Assembly (NCBI GenBank): GCA_048538235.1
Contig: JBLYPX010000001.1
Coordinates: forward strand, 456,013 to 520,012
Length of the DNA: 64,000 bases
Origin: Candidatus Komeilibacteria bacterium
GTDB lineage: Bacteria; Patescibacteriota; Patescibacteriia; UBA1558
Direction of reading: 5' to 3'
Part shown: piece after piece, positions 55,383 through 56,454 of the stretch
Layout: each line of letters opens with the position of its first letter
Position numbering within the stretch: position 1 is the stretch's first letter
The notes under the pieces: generated by a model
Told to the model about the DNA's origin: nothing
Databases searched by the model: none
The model's input: the letters and a program-made list of their open reading frames with translations, nothing else
Translations under genes and position numbers: made by a program

Positions 55383-55775
55383 TTACTTACAAAAATCATA
55401 ATTATCATAGTTTTCTCTTATAATCTTTTTCCAAGCAATAGTTTCATTACCACCTTTAATATAATTCTTATGATAAACAAGTAATACGATAATTTCTTCT
55501 GTCTTATTATTTACTGCTAAAATACATCTATTCCCTGAATTCTTCTTAGAAACCTTTGTACCAGCTACACGAAACTCTGATTTGCAAATAGAAACATCCC
55601 CCTCAGTAACAATACTGTCTACTATATCTGTTTTTAATAACTCTTCAAGACGTTTAAATTGTTCTATAACACCCCGCCATGTTATATCCCAGTAATTTTT
55701 ATACTTCTTTTGAAATTTCTTTATATAATGACGTTCTGCAAATTCATCAATTTTAACCGAATAGTTAATAGACAT
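55383..55775 (-). CDS. Candidate toxin: RelE/ParE-fold-like small protein (130 aa)
   Basis: C-terminal half EFRVAGTKVSKKNSGNRCILAVNNKTEEIIVLLVYHKNY resembles the RelE/ParE beta-sheet core (ElR...G.YRiiy.vdde...v.vl.ighRkd.Y). 11-nt overlap with the upstream HTH-Panacea gene. Confidence 0.45.
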   Translation of the reverse strand: MSINYSVKIDEFAERHYIKKFQKKYKNYWDITWRGVIEQFKRLEELLKTDIVDSIVTEGDVSICKSEFRVAGTKVSKKNSGNRCILAVNNKTEEIIVLLVYHKNYIKGGNETIAWKKIIRENYDNYDFCK

Positions 55776-56454
55776 GTGTGGGATCCTCTTGAATAATTAA
55801 CTCATATGGTATCAGCTCATCTTGGACACATAGACGATATGGTAATTGTTCGTGAGTAAAATTTACAATTTCACTTGTTCTTTTAGACCGCCACTTTCTT
55901 TCTATCTTTTTAATTAAACTCTTCTCCTCACTTGATAGTGCATTTAATTTTCTCATCTTTGACCCCTCACTTTCATGAATTAAAATAACTTCATCTTTTG
56001 TTCTATCTAAATTTATCTTCCCATCACTTTCTAGTTCATCAAGAGCACGAAAATATAAATCAGGCACTGGTCCAAATTGAATATGTCTATATTGCATACC
56101 ACTCATACTATTTAAATTTTCATAGAACCAGGCAAAATCTGCTAAATATAATAATTTTGCCAGCTTTGTTTTTGGCATTTTACCATCACCTTTTGAGTTT
56201 GCAGAACGTAAATAAAAAAGTATCATCTCTTTATATTTCTCATAATTTGGTAATAGTCCAACTTGCATATCTTCCAGACTTACTCCAAATAAATTTGAGA
56301 GTGTTCGTGCTTCAGAAAGTGACAATTCTTTTTTACCCTGTTCAATAGCTATGAAAGAGGTTCGTGATATTCCCAATTTTTTAGCAATATCATGCTGAGA
56401 CAAACCTTTTTTTTCACGTAAAACTTTTAAAGATTGTATATATGCTGTGATCAT
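55765..56454 (-). CDS. HTH_XRE DNA-binding domain fused to a Panacea (DUF4065, SocA/PanA-like) domain; candidate antitoxin/autoregulator
   Basis: N-terminus LREKKGLSQHDIAKKLGISRTSFIAIEQGKK (Cro/C1 HTH). Middle KTKLAKLLYLADFAWFYENLNSMSGMQYRHIQFGPVPD matches the DUF4065/Panacea core. Confidence 0.6.
   Translation of the reverse strand: MITAYIQSLKVLREKKGLSQHDIAKKLGISRTSFIAIEQGKKELSLSEARTLSNLFGVSLEDMQVGLLPNYEKYKEMILFYLRSANSKGDGKMPKTKLAKLLYLADFAWFYENLNSMSGMQYRHIQFGPVPDLYFRALDELESDGKINLDRTKDEVILIHESEGSKMRKLNALSSEEKSLIKKIERKWRSKRTSEIVNFTHEQLPYRLCVQDELIPYELIIQEDPTHVY

Follow-up and report, generated by a model that had tools for sequence, protein, structure and literature searches.

Which kind of system is formed by two overlapping minus-strand genes of a Candidatus Komeilibacteria bacterium, one encoding a helix-turn-helix (HTH)-Panacea protein and the other a protein of 130 amino acids (aa)? 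The genes, here named panA and panT, lie in a stretch of 64,000 nucleotides (nt) of contig JBLYPX010000001.1 (assembly GCA_048538235.1, positions 456,013 to 520,012, forward strand), which is referred to as the window. A sequence-only reading of the window had proposed an HTH-Panacea antitoxin preceding a partner of the RelE/ParE fold, and this core was borne out by profile matches, a structure match, and a strict gene pairing that also upholds the regulator-first order. Both open reading frames (ORFs), of 229 and 130 aa, and their overlap of 11 nt were recovered where they had been placed when the sequence was re-read. Taken as a whole, the locus is probably an autoregulated type II PanAT toxin-antitoxin operon with a RelE-like mRNA endonuclease as its toxin.

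The domain content of PanA was settled by Pfam profile search, which backed the HTH and Panacea/DUF4065 homologies. HTH_3 matched residues 9-62 (E=3e-12, above the cut-off) and SocA_Panacea (PF13274) matched residues 98-205 (E=3e-13, 51.1 bits at a cut-off of 25.7), the latter spanning positions 1-111 of the 113 in the profile. The Panacea core KTKLAKLLYLADF...SMSGM.Y..GPVPD was invariant across 29 PanA homologues. Matches of PanA in NCBIfam and PADLOC were restricted to the HTH region, except for one NCBIfam match to DarG over residues 98-183, which was non-significant (E=0.12). A 100% identical PanA from a Candidatus Komeilibacteria metagenome-assembled genome (MAG; 860-kb contig) is present in NCBI under the name [quoted passage not shown], and a protein identical to PanT is annotated as “hypothetical”.

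Structure prediction, which had been proposed for both proteins, gave a confident AlphaFold2 (AF2) model with a RelE/ParE fold for the toxin (predicted local distance difference test, pLDDT, of 88; predicted template modelling score, pTM, of 0.82; alignment of 29 sequences), and a poor one for PanA, which is considered below. The toxin model runs from beta1 (residues 6-9) through alpha1 (11-25), alpha2 (27-41), and a short helix into four strands (52-58, 61-68, 82-89, and 94-102), and closes with two extra C-terminal helices (111-129). The characteristic RelE/ParE alpha/beta fold of beta1, two helices, and an antiparallel sheet was found in the 130-aa protein by the model and by a fold search, in which the best structural matches were all ribonucleases (RNases). 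The likeness to RelE/ParE claimed earlier thus stands at the level of the fold, with a correction to the extra segments that had been described at both ends: the N-terminal half is a canonical beta1-alpha1-alpha2 with nothing added, and the C-terminal segment was confirmed as helices 111-129, the sole addition to the fold.

Nineteen residues were invariant in 76 toxin sequences, namely H16, I18, K19, F21, K23, K24, Y25, W29, and T32 in the N-terminal half, and K65, F68, S76, G81, R83, L98, L99, K103, E111, and T112 further on. The catalytic constellation of RelE consists of K52/K54, R61, R81, and Y87. By strand register, K65, R83, and K103 of the toxin fall at the positions of K52, R61, and R81 of Escherichia coli RelE, a mapping that rests on secondary-structure register and not on residue-level structural alignment, which tempers its weight. 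The only local segment aligned by hhalign, with a RelE sequence checked against 4V7K, paired KNSGNRCILAV with RSSGYRLVYQVI; it was non-significant and places R83 on RelE R61. Because the best structural matches are RNases and K65, R83, and K103 are invariant, the 130-aa protein would most likely act as a ribosome-dependent mRNA endonuclease.

The distribution of the pair was assessed in a scan of 185,579 genomes, one per species, from which 80 loci were fetched for pairing analysis. Relatives of the toxin occurred in 222 of these species genomes. The family is small and discrete: a word index gave 68 matches, and a search of 1.84 billion representatives at E<=1e-3 yielded 230 clusters at 50% identity, with full-length members of about 130 aa. 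Almost all of the 80 loci were Patescibacteria MAGs, joined by one complete genome, that of the cultured species Minisyncoccus archaeiphilus (PMX.108). Of these loci, 78 had a PanA orthologue directly upstream in the same orientation, both exceptions being contig ends, and the phmmer E-values of these orthologues ranged from 1e-70 to 1e-108 where they were intact. The 11-nt overlap was identical in most loci, and flanking genes varied from locus to locus, so that the neighbourhood survey which had been suggested as a check came out in favour of the pairing. Even a remote member of the toxin family (E=1.8e-13) was preceded by a Panacea protein, in this case of 224 aa with PF13274 only and no HTH recorded. 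When the antitoxin was taken as the starting point, two PanA homologues, of which one occurs on many contigs, were each followed by a gene of the toxin family (A1 family) with an 11-nt overlap. Pairwise identities of toxin and antitoxin correlated across loci (r=0.58). A related genome, whose typA is 78% identical, likewise has the module adjoining typA, and it was therefore inherited in place within that lineage.

Nonsense codons were observed in three loci: within the toxin beside an intact PanA in L032 (about 3216) and L077 (about 3100), and as a TAA inside the Panacea core of PanA beside an intact toxin in L022 (about 2670). The two toxin cases count in favour of a toxin-antitoxin pair, although all three could represent real decay or MAG errors.

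One copy of the module was located on a phage. In IMG/VR contig UViG_3300027891_000022 (L086), a temperate siphovirus with 60% GC, it occupies 5289-6390 between the genes for an endolysin and a large serine integrase, a moron-like position. The toxin family thus also occurs on a contig whose base composition is not that of Patescibacteria, and phages can carry it. A tblastn search with the toxin gave no match in GenBank phages or PLSDB plasmids, and its only match in PHROGs was a weak one to phrog_5869, of unknown function.

Individual loci showed further arrangements. In L036, the first module is immediately followed at 2372-3441 by a second, divergent HTH-Panacea gene (241 aa) and an ORF of 112 aa, which has no Pfam match but a RelE-like layout and aligned with the toxin family in the same register (hhalign, E=0.045); judged by gene order and this alignment, the locus looks like tandem PanAT modules. 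The chromosome of M. archaeiphilus PMX.108 carries the module at 2334-4649 (L034), where a DUF2130 gene (419 aa) has a 4-nt overlap with the toxin gene at its stop codon; other loci do not conserve this third gene. A second 130-aa ORF in L004 was considered as a family member and rejected as unrelated.

Conserved promoter and operator sequences were identified by comparing 73 non-redundant upstream regions with shuffled sequences. TTGACT, TGTCAA, and TATACT occurred in 39, 34, and 29 regions, with shuffle means of 3.7, 2.7, and 6.9, respectively. A 17-bp box, TGTC-N9-[GAT]ACA (Box A), was present in 31 regions (shuffle mean 0.42, maximum 3 in 200) at a fixed position near -60 in most loci, and a second box overlapping the -35 hexamer, TTGA[CT]-N5-6-ACA (Box B), in 50 regions (shuffle mean 1.6). 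The frequency of either box exceeds that in shuffles more than 30-fold, and Box B begins at a fixed distance of 25-26 bp after Box A in the other loci. The -35/-10 spacer is usually 17 nt, and in most of the 73 loci the -10 hexamer TATACT lies near the ATG with no Shine-Dalgarno site. In 37 of 49 loci the end of the -10 is separated from the panA ATG by no more than 6-9 nt, and leaderless panA mRNA is therefore predicted, which implies that many Patescibacteria would have leaderless antitoxin mRNAs. Judged from sequence, the joint presence of a Cro/C1-type HTH and a candidate palindromic operator overlapping the promoter of its own gene is the configuration of an XRE-type autorepressor.

The TTGACT/TATATA promoter proposed for the window is present with a 16-nt spacer, and its -35 is conserved across loci; the pair was not listed by a generic promoter scan, which performed at chance level in this AT-rich window (12 found, 9.7 expected). 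The ATAGT direct repeat noted beside it also exists (ACTAT at 56497-56501 and 56487-56491, minus strand) as a 5-mer in DNA of 32% GC within the -35/spacer region, and it was dropped as a candidate operator, since orthologous loci do not share it. The conserved operator candidate is the TGTC-N9-GACA box, which the sequence-only reading had missed. An inverted repeat of 20 nt, 75% complementary, across the start codon in the window was at chance level (8 matches, shuffle mean 7.6) and was likewise rejected.

A subclade of eight loci (L001, L003, L007, L035, L061, L069, L070, and L079) carries a palindrome whose centre is the PanA start codon and whose arms match over 16-20 bases with at most one mismatch, from about -20 to +20 around the panA ATG. 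The -10 region and codons 1-7 fall inside it; the window has no such palindrome. The arms co-vary between loci (GCATATAC/GTATATGC, CAATATAC/GTATATTG, and GTATAAAC/GTTTATAC), and the palindrome may serve as a third operator or a hairpin.

From these elements, a regulatory cycle can be proposed. A PanA dimer would probably bind the two 17-bp boxes through its XRE-type HTH, as the conserved DNA suggests, and since the second box overlaps the -35 hexamer, occupation of it together with Box A would repress the operon. The Panacea domain would bind and neutralise the 130-aa toxin by analogy with validated PanATs (PMC8832971, PMC10440598). Toxin freed from PanA is expected to cleave mRNA on the ribosome in the manner of RelE, HigB, and YoeB, leading to translation arrest. 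The module is an accessory, horizontally mobile element, patchy across Patescibacteria and also phage-borne, and probably acts as an addiction or anti-phage growth-arrest device.

Several results weigh against this account. Sequence searches did not connect the toxin with known families: the 130-aa protein had no family match in Pfam, NCBIfam, or PADLOC, and sequence profiles did not assign it to the curated families PF05016 (ParE_toxin), PF06296 (RelE), YafQ, or HigB. Among 29 family members scanned singly, one gave a weak match to PF06296 (E=0.07), a profile search of all PDB sequences with the toxin family was empty, and hhalign of the family against E. coli RelE was non-significant (probability 0.2). 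No equivalent of the catalytic Tyr87 of RelE was found in the toxin. On the antitoxin side, the mean column identity of PanA is 75%, unusually high for an antitoxin, and the AF2 model, built from 29 close homologues, reached a pLDDT of only 54, too low for inferring an interface or a neutralising surface. The nonsense codon in PanA of L022, if real, argues against strong toxicity. Furthermore, multidomain PanAs do not always rely on Panacea for neutralisation (Ernits et al. 2023, PMC10440598).

The alternatives differ in which of these parts they replace. The same PanAT architecture could carry a ParE-like toxin that poisons DNA gyrase, or a toxin with some other target, in place of an mRNase; this is quite unlikely given that all of the best structural matches are RNases and that invariant basic residues sit on the sheet at RelE catalytic positions, a constellation not known to be typical of ParE toxins. 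A non-toxic regulatory pair, in which the RelE-fold protein has lost toxicity and now serves a conserved transcription factor of Patescibacteria as co-repressor or partner, would suit the unusual conservation of PanA, the position next to typA in two related genomes, and the tolerance of a PanA nonsense codon in L022. It is nevertheless highly improbable, as the pair is confined to 222 of 185,579 species genomes with varying neighbours, is carried by a phage, keeps invariant charged toxin residues that match those of an active enzyme, and has its toxin broken more often than its antitoxin (2 versus 1).

A mainly anti-phage role concerns biological function and is compatible with the RelE-like PanAT operon favoured here. 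The Panacea domain would sense a phage cue and release or activate the RelE-fold effector for abortive infection, and the locus would not be a plain addiction module. The copy between the lysis and integrase genes of a temperate siphovirus, the patchy distribution and varied genomic context, the second HTH-Panacea module in tandem in L036, and the sensory role proposed for Panacea by Ernits et al. (PMC10440598) all speak for it. On the other hand, PADLOC defence models match neither the Panacea region nor the toxin but only the HTH region, GenBank phages and PLSDB plasmids lack the family, and the module in the window is flanked by housekeeping genes with no defence island; this role is a tentative suggestion on the unlikely side. 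Rather less likely is a reading in which the toxin forms a distinct branch of the RelE/ParE fold with another target or chemistry than RelE and ParE, under the control of a phage-sensing Panacea, in a defence system found mainly in Patescibacteria. That reading is based on the invariant H16, K19, K23, K24, E111, T112, and W115 and on the extra C-terminal helices, and if true would add a defence system to a group in which immunity is barely characterised. The RelE-like mRNA endonuclease in an autoregulated PanAT operon is preferred over these readings, and the features assigned to it are listed in the table.

Table. Features of the panA-panT locus in window coordinates.
Feature	Position	Strand	Description
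panA	55765..56454	(-)	229-aa antitoxin/regulator with N-terminal XRE-type HTH and Panacea (DUF4065/SocA) domain
panT	55383..55775	(-)	130-aa putative toxin, RelE/ParE fold, family without annotation
panA stop/panT start overlap	55765..55775	(-)	11 nt, ATGTCTATTAA; suggests translational coupling
Shine-Dalgarno-like AGAGGA	55784..55789	(-)	8 nt before the panT ATG, read from sequence
HTH_3 domain, PanA residues 9-62	56269..56430	(-)	Pfam; only confidently modelled part of PanA (pLDDT 72-88)
Panacea domain, PanA residues 98-205	55840..56163	(-)	PF13274; presumed toxin-binding/neutralising part
Box A TGTCAGGACTGTGGACA (TGTC-N9-GACA)	56522..56538	(-)	Candidate operator for the HTH dimer
Box B' TGTACAGAATCTTGACT, degenerate	56499..56515	(-)	Holds the -35 TTGACT; starts 23 bp after Box A
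-35 hexamer TTGACT	56499-56504	(-)	Supported by conservation across loci
-10 hexamer TATATA	56477..56482	(-)	16 nt after the -35, 22 nt before the ATG, leader with no Shine-Dalgarno site

The AGAGGA lies within the conserved QEDP codons of panA and is a candidate Shine-Dalgarno-like site for panT. No terminator-like site was found 3' of the toxin gene in the window. The module is placed between typA (52664-54454) and an ABC-F gene (56603-58054) as had been reported, with an additional gene of 250 aa (54518-55270, minus strand) in the interval between typA and the toxin. Its product contains two PF23477 treble-clef zinc fingers (E=2e-35) amid GGRDRG/RGG repeats and a lysine-rich C-terminal tail, and the gene has its own predicted promoter at 55336-55308. 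The ABC-F ATPase gene, also on the minus strand, is broken by a single in-frame TGA (57689-57691) immediately ahead of the ABC signature motif (…DIPMD*KIGDLSGGQQ…). Of 44 long ORFs in this window of 32% GC, only 3 end in TGA, and the in-frame codon could mark a pseudogene, stem from an error in assembly, or be recoded.

The analysis gives a name and a fold to a family of hypothetical proteins in at least 222 species genomes, nearly all of them from the ultra-small Patescibacteria. Patescibacteria episymbionts with reduced genomes are predicted to keep a classic autoregulated toxin-antitoxin module, and since the cultured M. archaeiphilus PMX.108 carries it, a real organism is available for its study. 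With its conserved operator boxes and predominantly leaderless layout, the module gives a rare comparative view of promoter structure in Patescibacteria.

Compared with known systems, the module agrees with PanAT in having an antitoxin with PF13274 and an N-terminal HTH in a conserved two-gene antitoxin-toxin operon with overlapping genes. The claim that it is undescribed was overstated: N-terminal HTH domains were reported in 343 PanAs and ParE among the PanT domains by Kurata et al. (2022, PNAS; PMC8832971), RelE/ParE are among the commonest folds in the toxin-antitoxin network of Ernits et al. (2023, PNAS; PMC10440598), toxins are bound in complexes and neutralised by their PanAs (PMC8832971, PMC10440598), and the antitoxin already bears its NCBI name. 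With HTH PanAs and RelE/ParE-like PanTs listed, the architecture is therefore already known. In the rows of Kurata Dataset S1 considered here, PanT clusters such as T14 and T28 were matched by HHpred to HigB-2, YoeB/ParE, and RelE; none of the RelE-like PanTs in these rows was experimentally tested there, and the rows name no Patescibacteria or Parcubacteria (PMC8832971). A literature search by title and abstract for Patescibacteria toxin-antitoxin RelE returned none about such a family. The novelty lies in the toxin family and in how prevalent it is among Patescibacteria, with T14 and T28 known here by their HHpred descriptions only. No model in Pfam, NCBIfam, or PADLOC describes this family, which carries the annotation hypothetical and comes almost entirely from Patescibacteria MAGs. 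The PanAT concept is unchanged, and its known toxin range and taxonomic reach are widened.

In contrast to RelE, HigB, YoeB, and YafQ, the toxin shows no significant sequence-profile similarity to these families, is longer (130 aa as opposed to about 85-115 aa), carries a beta-hairpin insertion (69-81) and two extra C-terminal helices, and has no evident equivalent of Tyr87. Its presumed neutraliser is a Panacea protein and not an antitoxin of the RelB, HigA, or YefM type. With HigBA and other XRE-HTH modules it shares an XRE-type HTH antitoxin that probably regulates its own synthesis via palindromic operators overlapping the promoter. However, the antitoxin gene comes first here, whereas the toxin comes first in classical higBA, and the HTH is fused to a Panacea domain as the presumed neutraliser.
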